Source: a virus (taxonomy: Duplodnaviria; Heunggongvirae; Uroviricota; Caudoviricetes). Taken from it: DNA of 36,094 bases. The stretch is taken from the IMG/VR virus record IMGVR_UViG_2869947659_000011. The stretch is one strand, 5' to 3'. Below, piece after piece: positions 1 through 36,094 of this stretch. The first letter of the stretch is position 1; the number at the start of each line of letters is the position of its first letter. A program made the translations under genes and the position numbers. The notes below the pieces were generated by a model. It saw only the letters and a list, made by a program, of their open reading frames with translations. It did no database searches and had not been told where the DNA came from.

Positions 1-141
1 TTACTGCTTACACTGTAAGAACGCCGCAAACTCCGCTCCCCAGAAGCTCATCCGTATTTCGCACAGCGAACCGTGCAGCATCCAGATGATGAGGATTGCC
101 GTCACGCAGAACGTGATGGCCGTAAGCGATTTTTGCGACAT
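1..141 (-). CDS. Hok/Gef-family type I toxin (small membrane peptide)
   Basis: 46-aa minus-strand ORF (ATG top at 141, TAA at 1..3) translating to MSQKSLTAITFCVTAILIIWMLHGSLCEIRMSFWGAEFAAFLQCKQ: hydrophobic N-terminal helix followed by the SLCEIR and AAF(L/M)xC motifs I recall from Hok/SrnB/PndA peptides. Too short for the ORF track. Recognition is from memory. Confidence 0.6.
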   Translation of the reverse strand: MSQKSLTAITFCVTAILIIWMLHGSLCEIRMSFWGAEFAAFLQCKQ

Positions 142-492
142 AGCGCTTGCTCCTTTTTCGGGGAGGCGCTAACCTATCATTTGCTTAGGGTAGACGGTTA
201 GGGCCTCGGTTAAACAAAAATGTTTTCCGGGGCCTTTCCACATCTGGCCTTCAGGTATTCCCTCCGACCATCAGCCGAAAGGCACCCGCGCGTAATCTAT
301 CGCTTTTTTGTTACTCCGGCAATTCTGCTCGTTAATTCTGAGGTAAGGGCAAACTCATCTGATTGTTTCCTCTGTGTGAAGTTGGCAGTTCATGCCACGG
401 GTAGACTGGCCCCCTGAATCTCCAGACAACCAGTATCACTTAAATAAGTGATAGTCTTAATACTAGTTTTTAGACTAGTCATTGGAGTACAG

Positions 493-858
493 ATGATTGA
501 TGTCTTAGGGCCGGAGAAACGCAGACGGCGTACCACACAGGAAAAGATCGCAATTGTTCAGCAGAGCTTTGAACCGGGGATGACGGTCTCCCTCGTTGCC
601 CGGCAACATGGTGTAGCAGCCAGCCAGTTATTTCTCTGGCGTAAGCAATACCAGGAAGGAAGTCTTACTGCTGTGGCCGCCGGAGAACAGGTTGTTCCTG
701 CCTCTGAACTTGCTGCCGCCATGAAGCAGATTAAAGAACTCCAGCGCCTGCTCGGTAAGAAAACGATGGAAAATGAACTCCTCAAAGAAGCCGTTGAATA
801 TGGACGGGCAAAAAAGTGGATAGCGCACGCGCCCTTATTGCCCGGGGATGGGGAGTAA
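493..858 (+). CDS. insC: IS2 transposase OrfA (InsC)
   Basis: ORF-track protein [40 protein letters not shown]... matches IS2 InsC; start taken at the internal ATG (493) rather than the track start 448. Confidence 0.9.
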
Positions 859-1721
859 GCTTAGTCAGCCGTTGTCTCCGGGTGTCGCGTGCGCAGTTGC
901 ACGTCATTCTCAGACGAACCGATGACTGGATGGATGGCCGCCGCAGTCGTCACACTGATGATACGGATGTGCTTCTCCGTATACACCATGTTATCGGAGA
1001 GCTGCCCACGTATGGTTATCGTCGGGTATGGGCGCTGCTTCGCAGACAGGCAGAACTTGATGGTATGCCTGCGATCAATGCCAAACGTGTTTACCGGATC
1101 ATGCGCCAGAATGCGCTGTTGCTTGAGCGAAAACCTGCTGTACCGCCATCGAAACGGGCACATACAGGCAGAGTGGCCGTGAAAGAAAGCAATCAGCGAT
1201 GGTGCTCTGACGGGTTCGAGTTCTGCTGTGATAACGGAGAGAGACTGCGTGTCACGTTCGCGCTGGACTGCTGTGATCGTGAGGCACTGCACTGGGCGGT
1301 GACTACCGGCGGCTTCAACAGTGAAACAGTACAGGACGTCATGCTGGGAGCGGTGGAACGCCGCTTCGGCAACGATCTTCCGTCGTCTCCAGTGGAGTGG
1401 CTGACGGATAATGGTTCATGCTACCGGGCTAATGAAACACGCCAGTTCGCCCGGATGTTGGGACTTGAACCGAAGAACACGGCGGTGCGGAGTCCGGAGA
1501 GTAACGGAATAGCAGAGAGCTTCGTGAAAACGATAAAGCGTGACTACATCAGTATCATGCCCAAACCAGACGGGTTAACGGCAGCAAAGAACCTTGCAGA
1601 GGCGTTCGAGCATTATAACGAATGGCATCCGCATAGTGCGCTGGGTTATCGCTCGCCACGGGAATATCTGCGGCAGCGGGCTTGTAATGGGTTAAGTGAT
1701 AACAGATGTCTGGAAATATAG
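816..1721 (+). CDS. insD: IS2 transposase OrfB (InsD), expressed as InsCD by -1 frameshift
   Basis: 301-aa ORF with the IS2 InsD sequence (..HSDRGSQY-like DDE core, ends ..[11 protein letters not shown]); overlaps insC as in IS2. Confidence 0.9.
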
Positions 1722-1732
1722 GGGCAACTCCA

Positions 1733-1928
1733 ACGGGATGCCCTCTGATGAGTGAATGGGGGAGGCGTGCTTTGAAGTGAATTTGTGGAAGGCTTCCAGT
1801 GTTGAGAAACATACGCCGCATTCTAGATTGTTACACTGATAATACTTTTGTCTCACGGTGTTTGAATCATTTTCCGGACGACTGGTGCGGATACGGGCAG
1901 ATGCGCCACAAAGCGGACAACGGAACAT
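1733..1928 (-). pseudogene. ogr: Ogr/Delta-family zinc-finger late-gene activator, 3' end interrupted by IS2 (native C-terminal codons continue at 396..332)
   Basis: MFRCPLCGASARIRTSRPENDSNTVRQKYYQCNNLECGVCF.. has the CxxC..CxxxxC layout of P2 Ogr. The track ORF (1692..1928) runs 13 codons into the IS2 right end. Removing IS2 and one copy of the target duplication restores an in-frame continuation ..SSEGIPWHELPTSHRGNNQMSLPLPQN with TAA at 332..334. Confidence 0.8.
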
Positions 1929-2054
1929 AGCGACCTCTCTTATTGTAGTGCTTGCACTATTCTAGGTTGTATTCTCTAAGATTTAAACATGACTTTCTCG
2001 GTAATGCTGCCAACTTACTGATTTAGTGTATGATGGTGATTTTAAGGTGCTTGC

Positions 2055-2330
2055 GTGGCTTCCATTTCCATCAGATGTCCTTCCTGCTCCGCTACTGAAG
2101 GCGTGGTGCGTAACGGCAAAAGCACTGCCGGACATCAGCGCTATCTCTGCTCTCATTGCCGTAAAACATGGCAACTACAGTTCACTTACACCGCCTCTCA
2201 GCCCGGTACGCACCAGAAAATCATTGATATGGCCATGAATGGCGTCGGATGTCGCGCCAGTGCACGCATTATGGGCGTTGGCCTCAACACGGTTTTACGT
2301 CACTTAAAAAACTCAGGCCGCAGTCGGTAA
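2055..2330 (+). CDS. insA: IS1 InsA
   Basis: 91-aa [46 protein letters not shown].. matches IS1 InsA. Confidence 0.9.
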
Positions 2331-2752
2331 CCTCGCGCATACAACCGGGCAGTGATGTGATTGTCTGCGCTGAAATGGACGAACAGTGGGGCTACGTCGG
2401 TGCTAAATCACGTCAGCGCTGGCTGTTTTACGCGTATGACAGGATACGGAGGACGGTTGTGGCGCACGTCTTCGGTGAACGCACTCTGGCCACACTGGAG
2501 CGTCTTCTGAGCCTGCTGTCGGCCTTTGAGGTCGTGGTATGGATGACGGATGGCTGGCCGCTGTATGAATCACGCCTGAAGGGAAAGCTGCACGTTATCA
2601 GCAAGCGTTACACTCAGCGCATTGAGCGACATAATCTGAATCTGAGACAACATCTGGCAAGGCTGGGACGGAAGTCACTGTCGTTCTCAAAATCGGTGGA
2701 GCTGCATGACAAGGTCATCGGGCATTATCTGAACATAAAACACTATCAGTAA
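2249..2752 (+). CDS. insB: IS1 InsB (made as InsAB' by -1 frameshift)
   Basis: 167-aa ORF overlapping the insA 3' end, typical IS1 layout. Confidence 0.85.
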
Positions 2753-2810
2753 GTTGGAGTCATTACCGACTTTCTCTATATAATGATTTTTAGCATTAGT
2801 TAATAAACGA

Positions 2811-2832
2811 ACGGCACTCTAAGGAGCGCCGT
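2811..2832 (-). terminator. Putative stem-loop terminator downstream of the 1039-aa cargo gene
   Basis: Imperfect inverted repeat ACGGCACTCT-AA-GGAGCGCCGT 9 nt past the stop codon at 2841..2843, followed on the minus strand by a U-rich stretch. Confidence 0.35.
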
Positions 2833-2840
2833 CAAAGATA

Positions 2841-5800
2841 TTATTCTGATGTCACTCTTTGCGAGTGAGCTATTTTTAAATCAGCGTTTCCTTCAAATAC
2901 TATATTCAACTCATAGTTAAGAGTTAGCTTGAATTTATCTGAGTCACTTTTGATATTCTCTGAAGTGACATTTACTAACTTATTATTATCATATTCTCTA
3001 ATAATTAATTTAGTGAAGTAGTTATCCTTTACCACAAGAGAAAATGGTTGATTAACAAATGGTAAGAAGTAAACCTTACGGGTACCGGATTCAGTAGTTA
3101 TGTTCATAGAGCCATCATCATTTTTTCTCATTAGTTCTCTGAGGTTGGGATTATCGAAAAGCATACGATTATATTGCTGAAAGATCTCTTTACTCATCAC
3201 AAGAACCAGTTTGCCAGCCAAGTCAGCAGATGATTTTATGTGATCAATAAACATATTGAAATCTTCTATTACGGTATGTTGCGAACAGCCAGTGCTAAAT
3301 AAATTTGAAAGTATTATTCTCTGGATGTCCTTGAGAATTAAGTCTGCTTGAATATCACCTTCATTGATATAAGGGATGGATTCTATTCCTTCGGCATACG
3401 GTTCTTTATCTATCTTAATAGATATCTTATGTTTTGTGAAACAATCGCTAGCCTGCTTAAAATCAATAGATTTGAAAAGTGAAAGAGGGAGCGTTTTCTT
3501 GATGCGTTTACGAAGATGTTCTGATGTTTTACGTGCAGTGCTATCTAGTCGATGTACATCTATGGCAGCATCCTGAAGTCTCATATCAAGATCTTTCTTT
3601 AGCATGTTAATATGCTCTTGAAGCAACTTTCTTAAGTTTTCTTTTTTTGTTTGGAGATCGTCCAATGTTAAAGTCAGCTTGATTTTAGTGTATTCGATGG
3701 AGTTACAAATTTTTGATAATACTCCAATGAGTCGTTGCTTCTCACGATATGTTATATAGTTGTTTTCTATTGCTTCTTTTATTTCTTTTGATACGCTATC
3801 GTTCTTGTTAGAAAAAATTAATAATAGCTGAACCCATGATTGTTCCATATCAATAAATCCACAGTCAAAAACATTACTGTAAACTCTGCCCATCACCATG
3901 TCTGTTTTATCATAGTCACGTAAACGCCTTGCTAAACTATTCATCCACCCATTGTGCTCCATATTTTCAGACCATGTCCACAGGCAGATTCTAATTAATA
4001 TCTTGATTAGTTGGCTTGCATTATCAATTTCTTCAGTGGGAGTTTCATATCCACCGGTTTGGTCAATAAGTTTACCCTCTAAAATAAGTTTAATGTAATG
4101 TGTCATTAGTTTGTCAGAAGTATTGATTCTTGATGTCAGATAAAGACATGTGCATATACGCATGTCAGTCAACGCATTTATGATGGCAATATTGAACCAC
4201 TCTCTGTCTGAATTGAAGTTTAGTTTTTTGGATATGAAAAAAACCGGGTTAAAAAGCTGGCCTTTGTAACTGTATTTTTCTACCGAATGGCTGTCAATAT
4301 TCATTGAGTGCTGCCATCGGTTAATAAGATCGACGGCTGTATCAATAGTAGAAGGATCGCGAGTCTGTGTTGCATCAATAATCATCGATGGAAGTTCTTG
4401 TAGTTGCGTTTTGCAAAATAATTCAAATAAATCTGAATTCTCTGTATTGCAGAAACGAAAGTTTATGCTTTCTTGATATTGCTCCCAAACAGTGGTATAG
4501 GTTCTTAATATACGATTATAACGTGAACGAAGCGAGGCATTTAAGAGTGATTGGTTGTTTCGGAACCATTCTGTTAATATTGACCATTGTGAACGAGTAA
4601 TTCCCATATAGATACAAAGTTCATTGCTGATAAGATGTTTTCTATTATTGATAATACGCACTCCGCTCCAAAGACATAATTCAAAAAATCTTTCAGAAAG
4701 ATTAATTTTATCCATGGAATTATTTGATATTTTATAAACTTCATCTGAAAACTCATATTGAAAACTCCGTTCAAATAATTCTGTAGTGATCAGTAAGAAG
4801 TTATTGTTGGTATTATCATCTTGAAAAAAATACAAATCGCAGAGATTATTAAAGTTATTAATTAATGCAGAGATAGCATTGTCAAAACTAATGAGATCAG
4901 AATCCCGCAGATACATATACGTATCTGCTGTTATAGCCTGCATTGTAAGACTTACGGAAAAATCTCCTCCTTTAATCGGAGCCTTATAAAAACATTGCTT
5001 AAGTATTTTTATTAATAAGCTGTCTGGTTTGATATTTTTAACGCTAAAAAGTATCTTACCCGTGGATTCTGTTTCTTTTGTACGATTATCACCAATGACA
5101 AATGACGCAAAATGATTCTTCTTTTTTAGTTGGTAATTAATAAGATTAAGAGTAAGTTGAAAAGGACGGTGATATAAACTTAACTCATCTTCCTTAGAAT
5201 AACTGCTAGCCACAGATATGTATTCTCCTTTGTAATCGGCTTGCTTGATTTCTAAATTTGAATAGTTATGTTTTTGATAGATAGGGTATAACCTAAGCTT
5301 GGCTGAGATTTTGTTACAAATATGGGGCATTACTATTTCGAAGGCAATGTATCGCTTTATAATTATTTGCCGTTTTACATCATCAAGAATTTCAAGACTC
5401 ACGATAAAGAACCAAATAGAAAGAACTATGTTTATCAAAAGCCATAATATGCTGATTAGACAAGCTATACCATAAAGATAACTTCCAAAGACAGTTTTAA
5501 TTAGTACACTGAGAAGTATAAATCCTGATAAGAAAAGCCCGCTGAGTCCAGCAAGCATGAATCCTGAGTAACGCTGATAAGCAGTTTGGGCTATTTTTCT
5601 ATCTGCCTTTTTTTGGAATAAGACACTTACTAAACCTATAACAAGAGGGTATACAATACCAATAATTGTCAATTGGCCACTTAAAATGGTTGTTTGCCAT
5701 TCGGTTAATGAATGCCTAAACGGGAAATAATGTAAAAGATTATTTTTTATAAATAATTCGTTTAAATATCCAACATAAAGTAGTACAAATGAAAAAGCTG

Positions 5801-5960
5801 ATATGCAAAGTACTGATTTAACCGGTGAGGATGTTAATCTTATGATGTTTTTTTCAATAAAATTCCATTTTAAATTCGAATAAAATGGATTTTTAACCAT
5901 TTTATTACGAACATAGTTCTTTGCTAAAATCTCTGTTGCACTTAAAAATTGTCCAATCAT
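2841..5960 (-). CDS. Large hypothetical membrane-anchored protein (1039 aa), AT-rich cargo gene; candidate accessory/defence function, family unknown
   Basis: Uninterrupted 3120-nt ORF on the minus strand. Two sampled 60-nt lines give 28-33% GC against about 60% in a sampled tape-measure line. Four hydrophobic helix-length segments in the first 190 aa (e.g. SVLCISAFSFVLLYVGYL, LTIIGIVYPLVIGLVSVLF, FMLAGLSGLFLSGFILLSVLI, LYGIACLISILWLLINIVLSIWFFIVSL), then about 850 aa of soluble sequence with a coiled-coil-like stretch (..LTLDDLQTKKENLRKLLQEHINMLKKDLDMRLQDAAIDVHRLD..). No Walker A or other motif recognised by eye. Confidence 0.8.
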   Translation of the reverse strand: MIGQFLSATEILAKNYVRNKMVKNPFYSNLKWNFIEKNIIRLTSSPVKSVLCISAFSFVLLYVGYLNELFIKNNLLHYFPFRHSLTEWQTTILSGQLTIIGIVYPLVIGLVSVLFQKKADRKIAQTAYQRYSGFMLAGLSGLFLSGFILLSVLIKTVFGSYLYGIACLISILWLLINIVLSIWFFIVSLEILDDVKRQIIIKRYIAFEIVMPHICNKISAKLRLYPIYQKHNYSNLEIKQADYKGEYISVASSYSKEDELSLYHRPFQLTLNLINYQLKKKNHFASFVIGDNRTKETESTGKILFSVKNIKPDSLLIKILKQCFYKAPIKGGDFSVSLTMQAITADTYMYLRDSDLISFDNAISALINNFNNLCDLYFFQDDNTNNNFLLITTELFERSFQYEFSDEVYKISNNSMDKINLSERFFELCLWSGVRIINNRKHLISNELCIYMGITRSQWSILTEWFRNNQSLLNASLRSRYNRILRTYTTVWEQYQESINFRFCNTENSDLFELFCKTQLQELPSMIIDATQTRDPSTIDTAVDLINRWQHSMNIDSHSVEKYSYKGQLFNPVFFISKKLNFNSDREWFNIAIINALTDMRICTCLYLTSRINTSDKLMTHYIKLILEGKLIDQTGGYETPTEEIDNASQLIKILIRICLWTWSENMEHNGWMNSLARRLRDYDKTDMVMGRVYSNVFDCGFIDMEQSWVQLLLIFSNKNDSVSKEIKEAIENNYITYREKQRLIGVLSKICNSIEYTKIKLTLTLDDLQTKKENLRKLLQEHINMLKKDLDMRLQDAAIDVHRLDSTARKTSEHLRKRIKKTLPLSLFKSIDFKQASDCFTKHKISIKIDKEPYAEGIESIPYINEGDIQADLILKDIQRIILSNLFSTGCSQHTVIEDFNMFIDHIKSSADLAGKLVLVMSKEIFQQYNRMLFDNPNLRELMRKNDDGSMNITTESGTRKVYFLPFVNQPFSLVVKDNYFTKLIIREYDNNKLVNVTSENIKSDSDKFKLTLNYELNIVFEGNADLKIAHSQRVTSE

Positions 5961-6208
5961 GAATTACTCTTCTATAAAGTGTGGGTCTACTAACTAAACT
6001 GGAACTTTTACTATTGAGTCATATTCCCTTGGACGGGATGGACTGTGAAGATTATACTTGACTTCCTCTGTCATGTGGGAAAAACATCCGTATTATTGTT
6101 AGCATCTGGTTGATGCCCCAACCTCTGACATCTAGTGGGCTGATACATTATCTTTTGTTCTTACTGTCAGTGTAGAAGCACATCTCAAAAATAATATTTT
6201 TAAGAGAT

Positions 6209-7318
6209 TTATTCTGTTTCTGCTATCCATTCCGGGATTTTTGCTTCAAGTTCAAGCTGCGTGGTAAAGCCGCTGTTATCAATGGTGTGCTCGGCTTTTG
6301 CAATAGTCCAGTCCTGATAATCAATCTCGCTTTTAAAGCCTGTCACTGTGCCATGCATTTCGGGATAGAGTTCTGTACGACCACGCGCCAGCGTGATGGA
6401 GAATGATGCGGCTCCGCGTTGTAGCTGCTGCCACTTTGCCGCCGCTGCGCGTCTTGCTGCCTGCTCGTTCTGATAAGTCTTGCGTAACACAAACACGTTG
6501 CCTTCCGCACCTTCCATATAGTCGCCTTCCCGACTGCTGCTTTTCTCCTTTTTGGGTTTTGGCGGTTTGCGGCGTTTCACGCTGACTTTTTTCTTTTTCC
6601 CGTAATTAAGATCAAGCCAGTAGGCGCGTACCCCCGTATACGCCTCGCGGTCAGCAATGCGGAACTGATGGCGATCGCCGCTGCTGCGTGTAATGGCGAA
6701 CGAGGGCAACGGCTGCCCCTGTGCGTTCACGCCACCACCTGGCATGATGAATAACAGATTGCCGCTTTTTACCGTGGCGATTGCTCCCAGCATTTCCGCC
6801 ATGCGCGTAAGAAAGGACATGTCGCTTTCTTCGGTCTGGTCGGCGTGGTCGATTTCGATATCCATCAGCATTTCGCTGATTTGCGGTTTCAGACCGTACC
6901 GATGAGTGATGGCGGATACCACACGCTCAACGGTCACATCATGCCAGGACACCTCACGTTTAACGTTAAATTCATCCCGAAAATCTGCGCTTCTGGCTGA
7001 AACAGTCAGCCTGTCCGGCGGTCCTTCGTGAGCGATTTCATCAACAATGTAAGTGCCTTTTTCTGTCAGCGGTTCCCCTTTCCAGCCAATGAGAACCGTC
7101 AGACGCGCGCCCCGTGGCGGTAGCTGCAACTGACCATCCGCATCATCCAGCGTGATGGTGAGCTGGTCCGCCTCAAATCCCCGGTTGTCGGTCAGTTACA
7201 GGCTCATCAGGCGCTCCGCCACGCCTGACAGCGTTTTACCCTCCGAAAGAATATCAAAATCCGGCATTTTCACGGGGGCCGTGCCCTGACTGAGCAATTG
7301 CATGGTGGTGTCGGTCAT
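6209..7318 (-). pseudogene. D: P2 gpD-like tail protein with an in-frame TAA stop at 7196..7198
   Basis: Track ORFs 7196..7450 and 6209..7129 are in the same frame, separated only by one TAA. The downstream part (..GEPLTEKGTYIVDEIAHEGPP.. DMSFLTRMAEMLGAIATVKSGNLLF..) resembles P2 gpD. The probable start ATG at 7318 has a GGGAGGGAG Shine-Dalgarno just upstream. Confidence 0.7.
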
Positions 7319-7475
7319 CTGCTCCCTCCCTGTGCGGCATGGTCGCATGTGCGTGCGGAGGGGGTTACTGCTTTTTGTTGTCGCCGTGGCGGGAGAACGG
7401 CGCAGGGGTGAGATTACGCGCGTGGTGGGTGATGATTGTTGCTGAATCATTTAACGGATACAAGGGGCTGAAGCT

Positions 7476-8660
7476 ATGAGTGAAACTCGTTTTCATGGTG
7501 CCCGTGTTACGGAGAATACCGACCTGGTAACAGCGATTAACGATGTTGATTCCAGCGTTATCGGTATCGTGGCAACGGCGGATGATGCGGACGCGAAGCT
7601 GTTCCCGCTGAACAAGCCCACACTGCTGACCCGCGTCAATGACGTGCTGGGAAAATGCGGGACAACGGGGACGCTTTATCGTGCGCTTAAGGCCATCGCA
7701 GACCAGGTGAGCACAAAGGTGATCGTCGTTCGCGTGGCTGAACACAAAGAAGAAGACGGAAAGACGCAGGATCAACTGGTTATCGGTGGTTCTGAGGATG
7801 ACGGCAGCTATACGGGGATGTATGCGCTGCTTGTTGCAGAGCAGGATGAAAGCATCGGATACCGTCCGCGTATTCTGGCCGCGCCGGAGCTGGACACGGA
7901 GGCGGTAACAAAATCCCTGTGCGTGATTGCAGATAAACTGCGCGCGTTTGTGTATGCCTCATGTCATGGCTGTAACACGATGGCCGAGGCAATTACCTAC
8001 CGCCAGAAATTCAACGAACGTGAGGTGATGCTCTTATGGCCGGACTTCATCGCCTACAACCCGAAAAATGGCAAAAACGAAACGTTCCCCGCGCCTGCCT
8101 ATGCGTGCGGCCTTCGTGCGTACATTGACCATGAACAGGGATGGCACAAATCGCTGTCCAACGTTCCGGTTAAAAATGTGCTGGGGATGTCGAGGCATGT
8201 GTTCTGGTCGTTGCAGGCCGAAGACAGCGATGCCAACAGCCTCAACAACAAAGAAATCACGACCATTATTCGTCGCAACGGGTTCCGCTTCTGGGGTAAC
8301 CGCACACCGGAAACGAACGCCTACATCTTTGAGGTGTATACCCGAACCGCACAGGTGCTGGCTGATTCAATTGCGGAAGCGCAGTTTGAAACCATCGACA
8401 GTCCACTGACGCCTGCGAATGTGAAGGATGTTATCAGTGCCATCAGGGCAAAACTGGATTCACTGGTGACTGCCGGGAAACTGATTGGCGCGGAGTGCTG
8501 GTATGACGTGGTGGATAACAGCACCACGGATTTACGTCAGGGACGTGTGCGTATTCGCTACAAATATACGCCCGTTCCGCTACTGGAAGACATGGAGCTT
8601 TACCAGACGTTTACTGATGAATACTTTGAACCCGCATTTGCGGTGCTGGGAGGTGCCTGA
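7476..8660 (+). CDS. FI: Tail sheath protein (P2 gpFI-like)
   Basis: 394-aa ORF; the N-terminal region (..IGIVATADDADAKLFPLNKPTLLTRVND..) resembles P2 FI as remembered; size and position before the tail tube gene fit. Confidence 0.88.
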   Translation: MSETRFHGARVTENTDLVTAINDVDSSVIGIVATADDADAKLFPLNKPTLLTRVNDVLGKCGTTGTLYRALKAIADQVSTKVIVVRVAEHKEEDGKTQDQLVIGGSEDDGSYTGMYALLVAEQDESIGYRPRILAAPELDTEAVTKSLCVIADKLRAFVYASCHGCNTMAEAITYRQKFNEREVMLLWPDFIAYNPKNGKNETFPAPAYACGLRAYIDHEQGWHKSLSNVPVKNVLGMSRHVFWSLQAEDSDANSLNNKEITTIIRRNGFRFWGNRTPETNAYIFEVYTRTAQVLADSIAEAQFETIDSPLTPANVKDVISAIRAKLDSLVTAGKLIGAECWYDVVDNSTTDLRQGRVRIRYKYTPVPLLEDMELYQTFTDEYFEPAFAVLGGA

Positions 8661-9170
8661 TGGCTGTGCCAAAACATCTTCGCTTTTTTACGCTGTTTGT
8701 GGATGGTGAAAACGAAGTGGGTAATGTGACGTCCGTCACTCTGCCTAAGCTGACGCGCAAAACCGACAGCTACCGGGGTGGTGGCATGATGGGTGCGGTA
8801 AGTATTGATCTCGGTCTGGACGACTCCGCGCTTGATGCGAGCTTTGTCATGGGGGCGCAGTTCGTGAGCTGTTCCTTAAGTATGGCGGCACGATTGACGG
8901 CACGCTGCTGCGTTTTGCGGGTGAATACTACACCGATGCAGAAAGCGACCTGTATGAAGTCGAAATGCGCGGACGTGTGACGGAAATTGATATGGGGGAA
9001 GCCAAACAGGGCGAAGCCACATCACACACTTACGCCATTAAAACACCTACTACAAGCTGAGTGTTAACGATCGCCCGTTGTGGGAGATTGACCTGCTGAA
9101 CTTCATTTACCGGAAGGACGGCAAGGACATTGTGCCCGATCGCATCCGTTCCGCGCTTGGGCTTGGCTGA
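8660..9170 (+). pseudogene. FII: Tail tube protein (P2 gpFII-like), two frameshifts as sequenced
   Basis: P2 FII-like sequence is split over three frames: frame 1 to about 8855 (..LPKLTRKTDSYRGGGMMGAVSIDLGLDD..), frame 2 (..RFAGEYYTDAESDLYEVEMRGRVTEIDMGEAKQGE..), frame 3 (..TYYKLSVNDRPLWEIDLLNFIYRKDGKDIVPDRIRSALGLG*). The shifts sit at a G5 run (8851..8855) and an A4 run (9040..9043). Confidence 0.8.
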
Positions 9171-9225
9171 TAAGTAATATGCTGGCGGCGCAGTGCGTCG
9201 CCTCTGACTGAAAAGGAGACAACAG

Positions 9226-9600
9226 ATGAAAGACATCGATACTGAAACCCGGAATAACACCGTGGCGGATAATGTGACGGCAGTTGAGGATATGGCTGTC
9301 GAACGTGGCGTAAAACTGACCCGACCAATTGAGCGTGGTGGCGAAAAAATCACGTATGTGGAGATCACCGGGGCTATTGAGCAGGCTGGATCCCTGTGTG
9401 GTCTGTCGCTGTCTGATGTGCTGAATCTGAAAGCGGATACCATGTTCACGCTGTTGCCTCGCGTGACCTCGCCACGACTGGATGAAGTGATGATTAAAAA
9501 AATGTCGTCACGCGATTTTATTCAGTTGTGCGCTGTGGCTGTAAATTTTATGAGCGAGCCAGACTCTGGCGCGAAGAGCGTGCAGGAGACGGCAGCGTAA
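9226..9600 (+). CDS. E: Tail assembly chaperone (P2 gpE-like)
   Basis: 124-aa ORF between the tail tube and tape measure genes; the -1 frame ORF 9528..9764 overlaps its 3' end as expected for E/E'. Confidence 0.75.
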   Translation: MKDIDTETRNNTVADNVTAVEDMAVERGVKLTRPIERGGEKITYVEITGAIEQAGSLCGLSLSDVLNLKADTMFTLLPRVTSPRLDEVMIKKMSSRDFIQLCAVAVNFMSEPDSGAKSVQETAA

Positions 9601-9764
9601 TCACCCTGGTGTGCTTTGAGCACATCGAAGATCTGGTGGCGGATATTGCCGCCATTTTTAACTGGTCGCCCGCCGAAATCTTCATGATGACGCCCGGCGA
9701 AGTGGTTAGCTGGCGTGAGCGGGCGGCACTTCGTAGCGGGAATGCAGACAATGAAGACTCTTGA
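9528..9764 (+). CDS. E' extension, reached by programmed -1 frameshift from E (E+E' fusion)
   Basis: ORF in the -1 frame relative to E, opening just upstream of the slippery heptamer and ending inside the start of T. Confidence 0.55.
   Translation: MRCGCKFYERARLWREERAGDGSVITLVCFEHIEDLVADIAAIFNWSPAEIFMMTPGEVVSWRERAALRSGNADNEDS
9543..9549 (+). promoter_or_regulatory. Candidate -1 ribosomal slippery heptamer A_AAT_TTT for E to E'
   Basis: AAATTTT fits the X_XXY_YYZ pattern in the E frame (codons gta aat ttt) and lies 15 nt after the E' frame opens. Confidence 0.45.
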
Positions 9765-12558
9765 TATCCGGGTCGCTTTCAGCGCCGTTGACAGGCTGAC
9801 CCGGCCTGCCGAAAACGCCCGCCGCCTGATGGGGCAGTTTGGTGACTCCATCCAGCGAACGCAGGGGGCGATCAAAAATCTCGAGCGTCAGGCGCGATCA
9901 TTTGAGCGCGCCCGTGACGCTGTCAGTAAAGCGGATGCGGGCATCGTGAAAGCACGACGCCAGCTTAACGCCCTTAATCAGTTACAACGCACGGGTACAG
10001 TGCTCAGCGAAAAACAACAAAAGCTGATGCAGCAGTTAAGCACCCGGCTTGAACGCCTGAATGAATCGCGCACACGGGAAATTCAGAAAATGCGGGAGCT
10101 TGGCGGAGAGCTGAAACGCCACGGCATTTCCCTGACAGGCAGCGATAACACCATCCAGCAGGCCATCAGACGCACCGAACAGTACAACAACCAGCTTGAA
10201 CGCGAACGGCAGGCGCTTGCGCGTGTAACACGGGCGCGTGAGCGGTATTCGCGCGCGCAGGAAACAGCGGGAAAACTGAAAACAGGTGGTGCGCTGGCAA
10301 TTGGTGCGGCAGCGGCGGGCGGCTATGCTGCCGGGCGTTTTTTGCAGCCTGCGATCGGGTTCGGCAAAGAGATGTCCCGCGTTCAGGCACTGACGCGAAT
10401 CGACCAGAACAGCCTGCAGTTTAAGGCGCTGCGTGAGCAGGCGTTAAAACTTGGCTCTGAAACGCAGTTCACCGCAGGCGATGCCGCCAGTGGACAGGCA
10501 TTTCTTGCAATGGCTGGCTTTACACCACAGGCCATTCAGGCTGCGCTCCCTGGCGTACTGAGCATGGCAACGGCTGGCGGTATGGACCTCGGTGAGACGG
10601 CGGATATTGACTCAAATATTCTGACGCAGTTCGGTCTTTCTGCTGACCAGATGGACCGGGTCGGCGACACACTCACCGCAGCGTTTACCCGTACCAACAC
10701 TGACCTTCGCGCACTGGGTGAAACCATGAAATATGCAGGTCCGGTGGCGGGTAAGCTGGGAATATCTCTGGAGCAGGCCGCAGCGATGGCGGGCGTGCTG
10801 GCGAATATGGGTATCAGGGGGAGTGATGCTGGTACGGCAATGCGTGCCAGCCTGGCTCGTCTGGCATCACCGCCAAAGGCGGCAGCAGAGGCGCTGAAAG
10901 AGCTTGGCGTGTCTGTCTCGGATGCCGGGGGCAAAATGCGCCCGATGGAGGATGTGCTGGCTGACCTTTATAAAGCTACCCGCAAATACGGGGAAGTTGA
11001 CCGGGTATCGTTCTTTAAGGACATTGCCGGAGAAGAGGCTTTCACATCATTTATGGCCCTCGTTGATGCGGCAGGTGACGGCTCCTTACCCAAACTGAGA
11101 AAAGAACTTGAAGGCGCGCGCGGTGAGGCTGAACGCACGGCAAAGGTTATGGCCAACAACCTTGACGGCGATCTGAAATCACTCAGCAGTGCATGGGAAG
11201 GGTTGCGCATCCGCATTGCAGATCTGATTGACGGTCCGCTGCGTTCTGTCACGCAGTGGCTCACGCGTGTGGTATCAAAGGTGACGGCGCTGGCGCAGGC
11301 CCATCCCGCACTGACGCGCCAGCTACTGATTGCAGGCGGTGCATTGCTGGCAATGACTGCAACGGTTGGCTCGTTGTCGCTGGCTATTGGTGTGCTTGCT
11401 GGCCCGCTGGCAAAACTGCGTCTTGGTTTTTCCCTCCTGACCGGATCAATGAATGCTGTCAGGGTTCTGCCAGCACTATGGGGAATGGTGACGGGTTCCG
11501 TTTCTTTACTGGGAGGCGCTATCGGGGCGTTGTTCAGTCCGGTTGGTCTTATCGTGGCTGCGCTTGCCGGAGCTGCCGTTCTTATCTGGAAATACTGGGA
11601 TCCCATCAGGGCATTTTTTGCCGGGGTGTTCAGCGGGATTATGGAAAGGCTGACCCCGTTGCGCGAAACCTTTGAACGGTTTGGTCCTGTTTTTGACGCA
11701 ATCGCGAGTGGGATCAGCCAGGTGTTTAACTGGTTTAAATCGCTGCTGTCACCGATGGAGTCCAGCAAGGAAACTCTGGATAAATGTACCAGTGCTGGCG
11801 AGATATTCGGTAACGTTCTTGGCGGTGCGTTACAACTTGTTCTGACACCTGCAAAAATGTTGCTGGATACGCTGGCGTGGATACTTGAAAAGCTTGGTGT
11901 GCTTCCGGATGAAGCGGAAAGGGCGCGCAAGAAAATCGAAGACGCACAGCGTGCGGCCATTCTTCAGGACAAGGTTGCCTTGCTTCAGGGGGACCTGGCG
12001 AAAATCAATCCGCCGAAGCCTGTGGAAAATGGCAATGGCACCGGAGGTGATAACCCCAAAGACAATAAACCGCTCACAGACAGTAATACCGGTACGCTGC
12101 GCAGACTCAGCAAAATTGCTGATAACACAGGTAAGCTGGTTGAGGAGACGAAAAAACGCATTGGCCCCGGCGATATTGTCTTTAAAAACCTGCCCCGAGC
12201 ACTTGCTGTTCGTGGGGAGTGGCAGGAGCGGAAGATTGCGCAGGTCAGTAAGCCTGCCCCCGCAATTAATATCACACCCGTGGTTCCGGCTCCGCTGCCT
12301 CCGGCGCTGGTCCCTGTTGTTGCGGCCAGCTCCCGCCCGGTGGCGGAGGCTATACGATCTCCAGTGGCATCAGTTCCTGTAACTTCCCGTAACCGGGAGC
12401 CTGTTGCCTCCGGATTTGGTGGTGAAATTCATGTTCATCTGCATAACGTTGTTACGCAGAATCCCCGCGAACTGGCGAAACTGGTCGGTGAAATGGTCAG
12501 GGCAGAAATGGAACGGCGCGCCCGTGCCGGGCGTGGCTGTTTTTACGATAAAGATTGA
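9715..12558 (+). CDS. T: Tail tape measure protein (P2 gpT-like)
   Basis: 947-aa ORF; long coiled-coil N-terminal region and Gly/Ala-rich hydrophobic central block; position after E/E'. Confidence 0.88.
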   Translation: MSGRHFVAGMQTMKTLDIRVAFSAVDRLTRPAENARRLMGQFGDSIQRTQGAIKNLERQARSFERARDAVSKADAGIVKARRQLNALNQLQRTGTVLSEKQQKLMQQLSTRLERLNESRTREIQKMRELGGELKRHGISLTGSDNTIQQAIRRTEQYNNQLERERQALARVTRARERYSRAQETAGKLKTGGALAIGAAAAGGYAAGRFLQPAIGFGKEMSRVQALTRIDQNSLQFKALREQALKLGSETQFTAGDAASGQAFLAMAGFTPQAIQAALPGVLSMATAGGMDLGETADIDSNILTQFGLSADQMDRVGDTLTAAFTRTNTDLRALGETMKYAGPVAGKLGISLEQAAAMAGVLANMGIRGSDAGTAMRASLARLASPPKAAAEALKELGVSVSDAGGKMRPMEDVLADLYKATRKYGEVDRVSFFKDIAGEEAFTSFMALVDAAGDGSLPKLRKELEGARGEAERTAKVMANNLDGDLKSLSSAWEGLRIRIADLIDGPLRSVTQWLTRVVSKVTALAQAHPALTRQLLIAGGALLAMTATVGSLSLAIGVLAGPLAKLRLGFSLLTGSMNAVRVLPALWGMVTGSVSLLGGAIGALFSPVGLIVAALAGAAVLIWKYWDPIRAFFAGVFSGIMERLTPLRETFERFGPVFDAIASGISQVFNWFKSLLSPMESSKETLDKCTSAGEIFGNVLGGALQLVLTPAKMLLDTLAWILEKLGVLPDEAERARKKIEDAQRAAILQDKVALLQGDLAKINPPKPVENGNGTGGDNPKDNKPLTDSNTGTLRRLSKIADNTGKLVEETKKRIGPGDIVFKNLPRALAVRGEWQERKIAQVSKPAPAINITPVVPAPLPPALVPVVAASSRPVAEAIRSPVASVPVTSRNREPVASGFGGEIHVHLHNVVTQNPRELAKLVGEMVRAEMERRARAGRGCFYDKD

Positions 12559-13068: not shown

Positions 13069-13098
13069 AAAACCGCTAATGGTCAGATTAGCGGTTTT
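13069..13098. terminator. Perfect 12-bp-stem hairpin between the convergent U and invertase genes (bidirectional terminator candidate)
   Basis: AAAACCGCTAAT-GGTCAG-ATTAGCGGTTTT; the right arm overlaps the last codons of the invertase gene. Confidence 0.5.
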
Positions 13099-13687
13099 CA
13101 TTTTCCTGAGTCTGCCCGGTTGTTTCTTCAGTCTGTATATCGCCTACAGGGTGATAACGATAAATCGTCGATGTGCCAATGCCGTAAATTATTGCCAGTT
13201 GTTTTCTGTCGTGCCCGTTTTTGATTAGCCTTGCTATTTGCTCATGCTGTTCTTTTGTCAGCTTCGGTCGACGTCCGCCTGTGCGCCCCCTTGCGCGCGC
13301 TGCCGCCAGCCCGGCCAGTGTACGTTCAACAATTAATTCACGTTCCATTTCAGCCAGGGCACCCATCACGTGGAAGAAAAAACGCCCCATTGGAGAAGAT
13401 GTGTCTATGCTGTCGGTCAGACTGCGAAAATTAATCCCTCGCTCCCGTAGTTCCCCGACGAGAGAAATCAGATGTTTCATGCTTCGCCCGAGGCGATCCA
13501 GTTTCCAGACAACCAGCGTGTCACCTTTTTGAAGGCGCTTTAAAGCGCGTTTTAATCCCGGTCGGTCTGTCTTTGTCCCGCTTAATTTATCTTCAAATAT
13601 TTGTTCACATCCTGCACAAACAAGAGCGTTTCGTTGCAGGTCTGTATTCTGGTCATTTGTTGATACCCTTACATAGCCAATCAGCAC
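13088..13687 (-). CDS. Serine DNA invertase, Gin/Cin/Pin/Hin family
   Basis: From the GTG at 13687 the product begins MLIGYVRVSTNDQNTDLQRNALVCAGCEQIFEDKLSGTKTDRPGLKRAL..., which closely matches the remembered N-termini of Mu Gin and e14 Pin (catalytic Ser in YVRVST, C-terminal HTH). The track start (TTG at 13705) is probably 6 codons too long. Confidence 0.9.
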   Translation of the reverse strand: MLIGYVRVSTNDQNTDLQRNALVCAGCEQIFEDKLSGTKTDRPGLKRALKRLQKGDTLVVWKLDRLGRSMKHLISLVGELRERGINFRSLTDSIDTSSPMGRFFFHVMGALAEMERELIVERTLAGLAAARARGRTGGRRPKLTKEQHEQIARLIKNGHDRKQLAIIYGIGTSTIYRYHPVGDIQTEETTGQTQENENR

Positions 13688-23199: not shown

Positions 23200-24027
23200 T
23201 CAGTCGTTAACCGCGCTTCGCCTTCTGCGTCGCGGTGGTTTTTCGTGTTGCAGGCTTCCGCGTTGTCTTTTTACTTTTGCTGCTTTTTGCTGCTTTTTGC
23301 TGCTTTCGTCCTGCGCCTGCTGTGCGCTGGCGTCTTCTGGTTCGGCTGCGGAATCGGCTTTTTTCAGGGCGCGGGAAAGGGTTGCAATCTCGCGTTTCAC
23401 ACCTGCGTTCGGGTTCAGGTGCATTGCTTCGCGCAGCAGCTTCAGTGACAGGGCCATGCTGTCCGCATCACTCAGGCCACGGCGGGCAAAGGCGCACGCT
23501 TTGCATAATTTGGCGCGCACTTCGTCCGGCATGTCCTGGTCGGTGACAATCTCCCGGAGGGTGTCCAGTGGTTCGATAAAGGCGGACAAATCCGCGTCGG
23601 CATCCGTCCCGGCCTGCGTCAGTACCGGATTACAGATTTCTTCGGTCAGTACCGTGGCAGCAGTACGGCCAAAGTTATCCGGCATGATGAGGTTGTGACG
23701 GACTACATACGCGCCGATACGCAGCGCAAGCGGAAGATCGCCACAGTCAATCGCCCACACCATCAGCGTGGCAATCACTTCATCCTGCTGCCCGCCGTCA
23801 GCCTCCAGCGTTCCCTCAATCCAGCCGGAAAAATCCGGCAACAACTCTTTTTTGATGGCGGCTTTCGCGCTTCTGGCCTGTACGCCCTTAAGCCGGGCCT
23901 GTGCCAGACGCAGACGATACAGCACCTCTTCATGCGCGGTACGCGCGGCGTGGTCCACGCCTTCATTCGCCCGGCCTGCGCGCTGTGCCATCACGTTCTG
24001 CCAGTGTTGTTGTGCAGGAGTAATCAT
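23200..24027 (-). CDS. M: Terminase small (endonuclease) subunit (P2 gpM-like)
   Basis: 275-aa ORF after the capsid gene; basic Lys/Arg-rich C-terminal tail encoded partly by a 10-bp tandem repeat (23274..23305). Confidence 0.78.
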   Translation of the reverse strand: MITPAQQHWQNVMAQRAGRANEGVDHAARTAHEEVLYRLRLAQARLKGVQARSAKAAIKKELLPDFSGWIEGTLEADGGQQDEVIATLMVWAIDCGDLPLALRIGAYVVRHNLIMPDNFGRTAATVLTEEICNPVLTQAGTDADADLSAFIEPLDTLREIVTDQDMPDEVRAKLCKACAFARRGLSDADSMALSLKLLREAMHLNPNAGVKREIATLSRALKKADSAAEPEDASAQQAQDESSKKQQKAAKVKRQRGSLQHEKPPRRRRRSAVND

Positions 24028-24072: not shown

Positions 24073-25124
24073 TTAGCTGTCGGCGAACTTCAGGCCAGTA
24101 ACCATCGCGCACTTGCCATAGTCTTCAACGACATAAGCGTCATTGATGGACTGGTAGGTGGCGATGCGGTTGTATTCCGGCTCGTCTTTCATCAGGCGAC
24201 GCATTGAACCTTTCTGCCAGTAAATCGACAGGTTGTTGAACGAGGTGATCAGCATCGTTGCATCCGGGAAGAACGGCGCAAGGAACACGCCCAGCCCGCC
24301 AATGGTGCGCGATGACAGGATGAGCTGCCCGGCGAGTAATTCCGCATTGGGATTCTGGCCGCTGATGCTGTTCAGCACGGGCAGACGCAGCGAGTTAAAC
24401 AGGTTGCGCCCCATAATCACCACGAGGTCGTCAGCTTCCTTGTGCCATTCATCCAGCAGGGATGAACGCGCGTCCTGTACCAGTGCATCAGCGTTCGCAT
24501 ACTTACCCGCGTGCGCCACGGTGTTGTCCATGTTGCGGGAGGTCAGCGTCACGTCATTCATAACGCGTTCGCTGGCGTCGGTTCTGATGTGCTCCAGCCA
24601 GCCCACGTTAACGTCCTGAAGCAGCTTGTTGGTGCTGAAGTTGGACTCATCCGCGTGAGACGTGCCGTTGAAACCGATCATGATGCGGTCAAGCGCCACC
24701 TGTCGGGCAATCTGTGCGCTGATGCGGGACTGAAAATCAGGGTGTGCCGACCAGGCATCAAGCTGCGGATACGAAATAAACGTGTCGTAGTTCACCTGTT
24801 CACACTGATATTTGCGGTTTTTCAGATCAACCACGTTATTCGGGTTACGGCGTTTTGTGCCGTCATAACTGGTATTCGTGCGCGCAATCGGTCCTGTGGT
24901 ATCCAGGAGGATTTTTTCGCCTTTCTGGTCGGTCACGCCGATCACGTTATTTTTTTCGTAAATTCGGTACTTTCCTTTGAGGCGTTTTCAAAACGCTGCT
25001 GCACCGCGGGTTCCACGGTAAATCGCGACACCAGTGCAGATACCGGGATATTATTAAGCGACGCCTGCTGCGCCATATAGCAACCCAGCTTGTTGCGGGT
25101 AATATCTGACATCACCAGATTCAT
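24073..25124 (-). pseudogene. N: Major capsid protein (P2 gpN-like), frameshifted near 24942..24960
   Basis: Track ORFs 24942..25124 (60 aa, ..SALVSRFTVEPAVQQ..) and 24073..24945 (290 aa, ..MIGFNGTS.., ..VGWLEH..) resemble the N- and C-terminal parts of P2 N. The frame change falls at or beside a T7/A7 homopolymer (24950..24956). Confidence 0.8.
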
Positions 25125-25978: not shown

Positions 25979-26139
25979 TAGCCATAGTTTTTGCCCCTCT
26001 GACTGGTTCTTCAGTTATGATGGCAAAGCGTAACAGGCTGATACAAAGGGCTTTTGTTGTAAGAAAACGGCCAGAACAGAGGGTTAAGGAGAACAGTTTC
26101 GCGCGCGGGTAATCTTCCTGTAATTACTCAGGGGGAGCA

Positions 26140-30081: not shown

Positions 30082-30393
30082 TTATTCAGGAAATAACGCC
30101 CGGATATTTCCGGCCATCTGACTGGTTATCTGTGCGGTTGATACTGGCTGTGATGCGGGGCGTTCTGTCCTGGTTTGTGTCACTGATAACGCTTCATCAC
30201 CAGCCCATGCAGCCAGTCGATAAGCCTCTGCCGGATTCATTTTCAGAAGTGCCAGCCCGGCCAGAAAAGCCACGCGTTGGCCGCTTTTGCGGGCTTCTGG
30301 TGTAAGGCTGTCCAGCCAGGCGCATGCTTCTCCTTCGTTCTTGACGGCGGTGGGCTTCAGATAGAAACTTATCCGTCTGGTTGGAGTCGTCAT
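30082..30393 (-). CDS. ParR/StbB-like DNA-binding partner of the ParM-like gene
   Basis: From the ATG at 30393 (GGAG Shine-Dalgarno upstream, overlaps the parM-like stop): MTTPTRRISFYLKPTAVKNEGEACAWLDSLTPEARKSGQRVAFLAGLALL.. resembles R1 ParR (..FKLNPDVNQ.., ..RSRLNRAALTAGLALY..) as remembered. Confidence 0.5.
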   Translation of the reverse strand: MTTPTRRISFYLKPTAVKNEGEACAWLDSLTPEARKSGQRVAFLAGLALLKMNPAEAYRLAAWAGDEALSVTQTRTERPASQPVSTAQITSQMAGNIRALFPE

Positions 30394-30397
30394 TGGT

Positions 30398-31003
30398 TTA
30401 CTCCTTGTCCATTGCGTACAGCCCATTAACCAGAGCAAACTGTGGCACCCCGTCCGCGATGAAAGTCGCATTAACTCCGCAGGCTTCGCGGATAGCGGGT
30501 GCCACAATCTCCGCCCCTCCACCGACAACCATCACCCGCCCGTAACCCGAAAAACCTGCCAGCGCGCGGATCACGCGTTGTTTCAGTGTTTCTTCCTTTT
30601 CACGAATTACCGCCATCAGGCTGGCGTAATGCGCGTCATTGTGGATGTGCTGGCGCAGCCAGGCTTCATCATGGCGATGTTCGATAATGGTATTGGCGAT
30701 GTGGTGACTGGTGCGCATACCGTTAGTGGCCATCACCGACAGTACGGCATCGGCCATCAGAGAAACGCCCACGTGTGGATCGCAAAACACCTGGCTGATA
30801 CCTGCCAGTTGCCCCTGAACCTTTGCCACATCCAGCGTGGTTCCGCCCAAATCCACAATCAGCAGGGATTCAAACGGACTCATGTCAGCCAGTGCCTTAA
30901 AGCCAGCCGGAATGGATTCAGGCATAACCCGTACGTTACGGATAGTGAATGCTTCGCCGTTCTGGTACTCCACCGGGCGCATGACGTTCGCTTTTTTGCG
31001 GTT
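30398..31003 (-). pseudogene. ParM/StbA-like actin-family ATPase, N-terminal third removed by the IS911 boundary
   Basis: ..LIVDLGGTTLDVAKVQGQLAGISQVFCDPHVGVSLMADAV.. ..RVMVVGGGAEIVAPAIRE.. ..FALVNGLYAM.. matches the C-terminal about 200 aa of ParM as remembered; the track ORF begins inside the IS911 terminus. Confidence 0.7.
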
Positions 31004-31011
31004 TGAAGTGG

Positions 31012-32180
<1,169 letters not shown>

Positions 32181-32253
32181 TGGAGCACCTGTGTTGTTCT
32201 GAGGTGAGCATATCACCTCTGTTCAGGTGGCCAAATTCAGTGTGCCACTTCAA

Positions 32254-32517
32254 ACCGAAGAACACGGCGGTGCGGAGTCCGGAGAGTAACGGAATAGCAG
32301 AGAGCTTCGTGAAAACGATAAAGCGTGACTACATCAGTATCATGCCCAAACCAGACGGGTTAACGGCAGCAAAGAACCTTGCAGAGGCGTTCGAGCATTA
32401 TAACGAATGGCATCCGCATAGTGCGCTGGGTTATCACTCGCCACGGGAATATCTGCGGCAGCGGGCTTGTAATGGGTTAAGTGATAACAGATGTCTGGAA
32501 ATATAGGGGCAAATCCA
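32254..32517 (+). mobile_element. Truncated IS2 copy (3'-terminal 264 bp only)
   Basis: Sequence from AACCGAAGAACACGGCGGTGCGGAG.. to ..GGAAATATAGGGGCAAATCCA matches the IS2 right end (compare 1469..1732, a few substitutions); the left 1067 bp are absent and IS911 abuts the break. Confidence 0.9.
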
Positions 32518-35086: not shown

Positions 35087-35237
35087 GAGTGAAGTTTCAT
35101 TTAGATGAACTTAAAAGAATGGCAACGCTCGATAATTTTGCGCGTTTTCTCAATGAGTCGTCTACGAATGAAAAATGTTTGTCGTGTGGCGATACGGATA
35201 TGTACATGTATTTGACGAATATTGTTGAGGTGTGAGG

Positions 35238-36094
35238 TGTACTGGCAATAGCGGACACTACCATTTGTTCTTTTTTTAAGCAGCCATCTGATGATATTTT
35301 TCCCTGAAGGCTGCCGGGGATATATTCCCCAGACGAGAGTGACGACGCTGACGATTGTAGAAAATCTCAATGTATTCCCGTATTACTGAGATGGCTTCAT
35401 CCCGGTTATTAAAACGATAGTGGCTCAGGCTCTCATTTTTCAGCGTTCCCCAGAAGCTTTCCATCGGAGCGTTGTCGTAACAGTGACCTTTACGCGACAT
35501 TGATGTTTTCAGACCAGACTGCTCCTGTATGACCCGGTAATCGTATGCGCAGTACTGTGAACCTCGATCAGAGTGGTGGATTAGCCCGGTAGGTGGGCGC
35601 TGGCTCCTGAGCGCCATAAACAGGGCTTTACCTGTCAGCTCTTTTGTCATGCGCTCTCCCATGGTGTAGCCGACAATTTCGCACGTATAAACATCTTTGA
35701 TGCCAGCGAGGTACAACCATCCCTCCTGTGTGGCAACATACGTCAGGTCCGCCACCCAGACCTGATTTGGTGCTGTAGGAGCGAACGTCTGGTTCAGCAG
35801 ATTTGGCGCAACTGGCAGATTGTGGTTCGGGTTCGTAGTCGCTCTGAACTTGCGTTTCTGCTTACAGCGTAGCCTTAGCTCCTTACGAAGACGTGCCAGT
35901 CGGTCACGACCAACGATGATGCCATTCTCTGCCAGCTCCGTCTGGAGCCGCCGGGTTCCATATGTTTCGCGAGTGCGGATATGTGCCACCTTAATCTCCA
36001 GTTTTAGCCGCTCATCACTTTGTTTTCTGTCTGAGGGTTCATGCTGTACCCAGTTGTAATAACCGCTCCTGGATACACCAAATACCTGACACAT
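35238..36094 (-). mobile_element. IS3-family insertion sequence (IS150-like), truncated by the window edge
   Basis: The terminus begins TGTACTGG.. about 40 bp beyond the transposase stop; only the OrfB side is in the window. The end coordinate is approximate. Confidence 0.75.
35276..36094 (-). CDS. IS3-family transposase OrfB (DDE integrase domain), partial at window edge
   Basis: 272-aa ORF with ..QVWVADLTYVATQEGWLYLAGIKDVYTCEIVGY.. HHSDRGSQYCA.. CYDNAPMESFW.., typical IS3-family OrfB. Confidence 0.85.
   Translation of the reverse strand: MCQVFGVSRSGYYNWVQHEPSDRKQSDERLKLEIKVAHIRTRETYGTRRLQTELAENGIIVGRDRLARLRKELRLRCKQKRKFRATTNPNHNLPVAPNLLNQTFAPTAPNQVWVADLTYVATQEGWLYLAGIKDVYTCEIVGYTMGERMTKELTGKALFMALRSQRPPTGLIHHSDRGSQYCAYDYRVIQEQSGLKTSMSRKGHCYDNAPMESFWGTLKNESLSHYRFNNRDEAISVIREYIEIFYNRQRRHSRLGNISPAAFREKYHQMAA

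Follow-up and report, generated by a model that had tools for sequence, protein, structure and literature searches.

Two separate insertion-sequence transpositions, IS2 and then IS1, at ogr in a cryptic P88-like Shigella boydii prophage

Two insertion sequences lie at the late activator gene ogr of the prophage described here: an IS2 within the coding region and an IS1 upstream of the start codon. Activators of the Ogr/Delta family act at late promoters by way of a dyad element upstream and RNA polymerase's alpha subunit. Ogr-type proteins are needed for late transcription in P2-related phages (PMC5694545). In the genome considered here, the gene is interrupted. The locus, part of a 36,094-nucleotide stretch of viral DNA (hereafter, the window), raises the question of whether the two insertions are real and in what order they occurred, whether they removed the activator, its promoter, or both, and whether this loss would have mattered to the prophage.

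The structural genes of the prophage are collinear with those of Xuanwuvirus P88_4B11 over ~20 kb at 96–99% DNA identity, and on such similarity the prophage is classified as P88-like (Xuanwuvirus, Peduoviridae). Its gene order is the one common to P88_4B11 and phage phiSM, in which the FI–U tail operon faces away from D–ogr, whereas in Peduovirus P2 the genes FI-FII-E-T-U-D-ogr lie on one strand. The opposite orientation of FI–U, together with an Ogr protein only ~38% identical to that of P2, places the prophage outside P2 proper (Peduovirus), and the P2/186 frame of comparison used in an earlier note on this DNA gives way to a P88-like one. An inversion of the FI–U tail operon mediated by insertion sequences was considered and ruled out, the arrangement being native to P88-like phages. 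Also Xuanwuvirus-like are the position of hok after ogr, the parMR genes, and an invertible tail-fibre segment. The immunity and integrase module differs, with 43–47% identity to P88_4B11; a 3.1-kb cargo gene lies between D and ogr, unlike in P88_4B11; and this prophage further departs from the Xuanwuvirus phages in having five IS-related segments, in the loss of gene A by deletion, and in several mutations of the nonsense or frameshift kind. The lysis genes (holin and endolysin) are intact and 99–100% identical to those of P88_4B11, which leaves room for selection against a functional activator. The prophage adjoins ihfA, as in its E. coli relatives, where btuC lies on the opposite side, and its location in Shigella boydii is between ihfA and btuC. 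No Rfam family was found in the window, and no Sok-type RNA could be assigned beside hok.

Joining positions 1928..1733 to 396..332 reconstructs an 86-residue Ogr/Delta zinc-finger protein. The reconstructed protein matches the Pfam family PF04606 (Ogr_Delta) over residues 3–49, scoring 52.3 bits (curated cutoff 26.3; E = 5e-14), in agreement with the earlier reading of the gene as a homologue of the late activators, and it also matches PHROG 603, ‘transcriptional regulator’. Homologues of the same length align with it from end to end, C-terminus included, at 96.5% identity in Citrobacter phage phiSM and Escherichia phage 500465-2 and at 89.5% in Xuanwuvirus P88_4B11; the reconstructed C-terminus is the native end of the protein, as had been proposed. 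Like P2 Ogr, 186 B, and P4 Delta, it is a small zinc-ribbon protein with four cysteines. Across 17 homologues that include P2 Ogr, C4, C32, and C37 never vary, and C7 is almost as constant (kept in ≥90%), with glycine in its place in a single homologue, P0031. The spacing is C-X2-C-X24-C-X4-C, as opposed to a middle spacer of X22 in P2 Ogr. The P2 protein is also shorter (72 residues), and the protein here has a conserved C-terminal motif of its own. A search for a solved structure of the Ogr/Delta family returned none, the best match in the PDB being the zinc ribbon of NrdR (E = 0.03). The gene sits near the prophage end, proximal to att, in the position after tail gene D that is usual in the P2 family, except that a cargo gene intervenes here; in P88_4B11 and phiSM, 43 bp separate D from the ogr start.

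Sites at which such an activator might work were sought in the two divergent late control regions. Exact copies of TTGTTGT-N12-AGAAC occur in both, between D and FI (7375..7398) and between O and P (26054..26077). We regard these elements as candidate operators, which fit the role of a late activator and differ from the TGT-N12-ACA of P2. The P2 consensus itself was not enriched (10 occurrences against 9 expected) and had no occurrence in the late control regions, and a search for dyads with 4-nt half-sites found nothing shared.

The anatomy of the locus is summarized in Table 1. Both elements have the features expected of their class. The element within ogr has the length of IS2, inverted repeats of ~40 bp at its ends that match imperfectly, a 5-bp target duplication, and two intact transposase genes of the IS3-family type, orfA (HTH_Tnp_1) and orfB (rve, 301 residues); matching DNA in E. 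coli genomes is annotated as an IS2-family transposase. The upstream element has the length of IS1, terminal repeats of ~23 bp that match at 20 of 23 positions, a 9-bp target duplication, and intact insA (91 residues) and insB' (167 residues), and its sequence recurs at 100% identity in annotated IS1 copies of E. coli chromosomes. The coordinates first given for the two elements and their duplications proved exact, the duplications are intact, and the distance of 71 bp between IS1 and the ogr start codon was right.

Table 1. Features of the interrupted ogr locus (positions in the window)
Feature	Position	Strand	Basis and remarks
IS2, complete, 1331 bp	402..1732	+	Ends and length, orfA/orfB domains; transposase opposed to the direction of ogr
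IS2 target duplication ACGGG	397..401 (left copy), 1733..1737 (right copy)	n/a	Letters; single copy at the E. coli empty site
IS1, complete, 768 bp	2000..2767	+	insA and insB' pointing away from ogr
IS1 target duplication GACTTTCTC	1991..1999 (left copy), 2768..2776 (right copy)	n/a	Letters; single copy in CP026731.1 and E. coli
ogr, detached 3' end	332..396	-	Last two bases of codon 66, codons 67–86, and stop; with 1733..1928, an 86-residue reading frame
ogr chimera, truncated, 78 residues	1692..1928	-	65 native residues (whole zinc-ribbon domain) and 13 from the right end of IS2
Predicted ogr promoter, TTTAAA-17-TAGAAT	1987..1959	-	Promoter scan; intact; 12 bp from the IS1 end
Terminator-like hairpin, 3' of the upstream cargo gene	2810..2833	-	Scan; with IS1 absent, would still limit read-through toward ogr

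Three observations bear on these insertions. First, deleting each element together with one copy of its duplication leaves an empty-site reconstruction of 1187 nt, which matches five E. coli chromosomes end to end as one ungapped piece at 99.4–99.7% identity. There, the annotated order is Hok/Gef, an ogr/Delta-like zinc finger protein, and a large open reading frame. Because the 1187 nt are found ungapped in five chromosomes, both insertions are proven by their empty site and are no pattern of chance; ogr was struck twice, on separate occasions, by simple transposition, and each target duplication is still intact. Second, two draft assemblies contain contigs of 415 and 467 bp identical to the segment running from the end of IS2 through ogr to the end of IS1, from which it follows that the double-insertion allele is real and shared within a lineage. 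Third, the protein WP_073691803.1, named ‘ogr/Delta-like zinc finger family protein [Shigella boydii]’, has exactly the sequence of the 78-residue chimera; it is encoded on the S. boydii chromosome CP026766.1 (GCA_002949475.1, 4.68 Mb), whose region is 100% identical to positions 1..11928 of the window. Copies of insertion sequences are difficult to assemble, and an assembly error or chimeric reads could in principle set them beside ogr; against this stand the perfect target duplications of both elements and the recurrence of the same junctions in a complete genome and two independent drafts, with the IS2 junction present in a fourth genome as well, so that an artefact is extremely improbable.

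The order of the two events can be read from a sister genome, CP026731.1 (GCA_002946735.1), which harbors the same prophage with the same IS2 junction, the same stop codon in D, and the same frameshift in FII. At the IS1 site, this genome has a single GACTTTCTC and no IS1. Because CP026731.1 has IS2 in place while its IS1 site is vacant, IS2 inserted first, and IS1 came later, in the lineage of the window specifically.

The insertion of IS2 alters the C-terminal end of Ogr. The native tail across the junction reads ...SSEGIP-WHELPTSHRGNNQMSLPLPQN, and the break falls after codon 65 of 86. The earlier count of 13 residues supplied by IS2 was correct, while the number of native residues lost is 21, one more than the 20 codons first given. 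None of the four cysteines is affected, nor is the Pfam domain, and the zinc-ribbon domain (residues 1–50) stays whole. The structural weight of the two parts was gauged on an AlphaFold model of a 95%-identical homologue, P0001, used in place of the reconstructed protein. Residues 1–48 of P0001 are predicted with confidence as a three-stranded zinc ribbon (pLDDT ~90; block means 87–94), and the tail is weakly predicted (pLDDT 49–65). By chance, the chimera keeps an ‘ELP’ at the IS2 junction. The 21 lost residues include the motif IPWxxLPxSHRGxxQ, which is conserved in homologues down to 54% identity and absent from a subgroup of Salmonella homologues of 71–75 residues. Since this conserved tail motif is lost, it is plausible that late-gene activation is impaired through the chimeric protein.

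The insertion of IS1 concerns the transcription of ogr. A sigma-70 scan of the ogr strand returned one good candidate, TTTAAA-17-TAGAAT, which matches the consensus at 9 of 12 positions and lies wholly within the 71 bp retained between IS1 and the ogr ATG; we infer that it is the ogr promoter. It is the top candidate with and without IS1, and nothing better was removed by the insertion. The -10 hexamer TAGAAT is kept at an equal distance from the ATG in all relatives examined (P88_4B11, phiSM, 500465-2, and STEC384), and P2 has TAAAAT at a comparable position upstream of its ogr. Homology among the relatives stops ~43 bp upstream of the ATG, beyond which lies either D or variable cargo. The view that IS1 sits where the ogr promoter should be is thus not borne out, the only good candidate being intact on the ogr side of the element. 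What IS1 does replace is AT-rich, UP-like DNA lying upstream of position -47 or so, counted from the predicted start, and it cuts ogr off from read-through arriving from upstream. These changes would likely leave a weaker promoter, not an absent one. A hybrid or outward promoter formed by the IS1 end was also considered: a TTGGCA hexamer is present, with no usable -10 at 16–18 bp, and the site was not reported by the scans; this candidate was rejected.

Both insertions might even have left activation of the late promoters essentially unaffected, with the whole zinc ribbon and the core promoter retained. Residue 49 is the last of the Pfam domain, and the part that AlphaFold folds with confidence stops at about residue 48; the natural homologues without the tail motif, the retained promoter, and the ‘ELP’ at the junction point the same way. 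Part of the C-terminus of P2 Ogr is reportedly dispensable, in which case the chimera could still be active. Conservation of IPWxxLPxSHRGxxQ down to 54% identity, however, implies constraint on the tail, the distal upstream DNA and any read-through are lost, and transcription of the IS2 transposase would run antisense into ogr. Weighing these points, we consider a functional ogr possible, though unlikely, and favor the reading in which the activator has probably been weakened through the loss of the tail motif and perhaps through a weaker promoter.

Whether a weakened activator had any consequence depends on the state of the remaining prophage, which was compared with P88_4B11 and with E. coli VG38-53E1 to identify lesions. 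Codon 41 of D is a stop, the FII sequence is spread across three reading frames, and frameshifts are present in N and M. Early DNA amounting to about 4.4 kb is gone, including replication gene A, its neighbours, and the first 118 codons of parM; its place is taken by a complete IS911 (31004..32253, at 99.8% identity) and by the final 264 bp of another IS2 copy (32254..32517). A further IS3-family element starts at ~35233, and the IS-related segments number five in 36 kb. The proposal that the insertions were simple and not followed by IS-mediated rearrangement accordingly holds for the IS2 and IS1 at ogr and fails elsewhere in the prophage, where IS911 and the IS2 remnant replace early genes. 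The prophage is already dead from these other lesions. For phage production, the damage to ogr is moot, given the deletion of replication gene A and the nonsense or frameshift mutations in D, FII, N, and M. The persistence of an ogr homologue in a phage-defective prophage has precedent in ogrK and other cryptic P2-family remnants of E. coli; the K-12 ogrK is an intact orphan, whereas here most of the prophage remains and ogr itself is broken by an insertion sequence. Shigella genomes hold about 200–300 IS copies, mostly IS1, IS2, IS4, IS600, and IS911 (Hawkey et al. 2020, PMC7373316). The IS-driven pseudogenisation described for Shigella involves the same elements seen here (IS1, IS2, and IS911) and has the same outcomes, namely interrupted genes and deletions adjacent to insertion sequences (PMC7373316). 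There is no substantial difference between the two, and the present locus is another instance, in a prophage regulator, of a known type of event, ordinary insertion-sequence decay.

A second IS2 insertion in ogr bears on whether these events were selected. In E. coli STEC384 and its near-twin STEC379, ogr is interrupted by an IS2 of the same orientation, which lies 9 bp away from the S. boydii insertion and has the duplication GTTCA. Their prophage has a different ogr allele and different cargo (hxsDBCA), and by these differences the insertion is independent of the one in S. boydii. The two nearby insertions hint at a target preference of IS2 or, less likely, at selection. Across complete E. 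coli genomes with this ogr type, the gene is contiguous in 1192 of 1195 and not contiguous in 3; STEC384 belongs to the few exceptions in E. coli. We consider it doubtful that the last third of ogr in P88-like prophages is a preferred landing site of IS2 or a selected point of knockout. A rival reading is that the insertions were selected, a knockdown of the late activator locking in a prophage with intact holin and endolysin and useful cargo (hok and a gene of 1039 residues), with the 3' end of ogr as a recurrent target. The independent IS2 in STEC384 and STEC379, the near-identity of the lysis genes to those of P88_4B11, and the many differently broken alleles of this ogr in databases all speak for such selection. 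Yet the rarity of non-contiguous ogr among the 1195 genomes speaks against it; the IS-related segments of the prophage number at least five and its point lesions are numerous, as drift predicts; recurrence may equally reflect a target preference of IS2; and the prophage is unable to replicate anyway. Selection for these insertions is on balance very unlikely.

The reading that we prefer is that of two independent simple transpositions, IS2 and then IS1, in the ogr locus of a cryptic P88-like prophage undergoing neutral decay, which is very likely correct as a whole. In this sequence of events, IS2 inserted first, after codon 65, yielding a chimera that keeps the folded zinc-ribbon DNA-binding domain and has the last 21 residues, with IPWxxLPxSHRGxxQ, swapped for 13 encoded by IS2. 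Later, and in this lineage only, IS1 landed 71 bp upstream of the ATG and 12 bp upstream of the -35 hexamer, with the core promoter left intact. Both events are best taken as neutral decay, in an IS-expanded genome, of a prophage that was dead already. Neutrality of the insertions is an assumption of this scheme, and we infer the loss of Ogr activity from the sequence.

The significance of these findings lies mostly in annotation: the prophage of S. boydii is a P88-like remnant inactivated several times over, and the idea that its ogr promoter was destroyed is corrected. The succession of IS2 and then IS1 could serve as a lineage marker. That the 3' end of ogr drew IS2 twice independently is a mildly useful lead, which bears on the target-site preference of this element. 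If selection were nevertheless at work, knocking out the late activator would recur as a step by which cargo-carrying P2-family prophages become domesticated.

In E. coli STEC384, whose related prophage carries a different ogr allele, IS2 has also entered this late-activator gene. The insertion there is flanked by the duplication GTTCA and lies 9 bp from the IS2 site of the Shigella boydii prophage, and a contiguous copy of ogr is missing in only three of the 1195 E. coli genomes having this ogr type. In the window, IS2 lies ~260 bp upstream of the hok/gef-family toxin gene and probably outside the hok locus; a search with Rfam found no Sok-type RNA in the window.

Point lesions affect four late genes (table), and those in D and FII are shared by the sister genome CP026731.1, which holds the same prophage with the same IS2 insertion. 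IS911 and the remnant of a second IS2 copy together (31004..32517) stand in place of ~4.4 kb of prophage DNA, an IS-associated deletion that removed replication gene A and also left parM without its 5' part. In the P88-like reference phage P88_4B11, parR/parM-type partition genes likewise reside within the phage genome. Another IS3-family element (35233..36094) breaks the gene next after the integrase and continues past the window end, and one alternative tail-fibre assembly gene in the window carries a frameshift. The TTGTTGT-N12-AGAAC elements, which may act as operators of the P88-type Ogr, are unlike the P2 operator, TGT-N12-ACA.

Features of the S. boydii prophage (window positions) and of the STEC384 insertion
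Feature	Position	Strand	Remarks
hok/gef-family toxin gene	1..141	-	Intact; next after ogr; 100% identity to P88_4B11
1039-aa ORF	2841..5960	-	Between tail gene D and ogr
D	6209..7318	-	Stop at codon 41
TTGTTGT-N12-AGAAC	7375..7398	+	Exact; D|FI divergent control region
FII (tail tube)	8660..9167	+	Two frameshifts
Serine invertase gene	13091..13687	-	Intact; 100% identical to P88_4B11
Tail-fibre invertible segment	13738..16446		Orientation opposite to P88_4B11
M	23210..24027	-	Frameshift near gene end
N (capsid)	24076..25124	-	Frameshift
TTGTTGT-N12-AGAAC	26054..26077	+	Exact; O|P divergent control region
parR and truncated parM	30082..31003	-	Plasmid-type partition genes inside prophage
IS911	31004..32253		Complete; adjoins IS2 remnant
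Second IS2 copy	32254..32517		Last 264 bp; adjoins IS911
IS3-family element	35233..36094	- (transposase)	rve-domain transposase
IS2 in ogr, STEC384	NZ_CP091029.1 4803..6133 (window equivalent 388..392)		Independent insertion; orientation as in S. boydii

The 1039-aa ORF matched nothing in Pfam, PADLOC or PHROG, and the version in relatives is labelled 'MFS transporter' by PGAP. It is AT-rich (31–36% GC), with a membrane-like N-terminus. Its counterpart in CP026731.1 is broken into 713 and 254 aa, and P88_4B11 and the Citrobacter phage phiSM lack it, the gap between D and ogr there being 43 bp. Because the same slot in STEC384 holds hxsDBCA, the D/ogr junction looks like a cargo hotspot.
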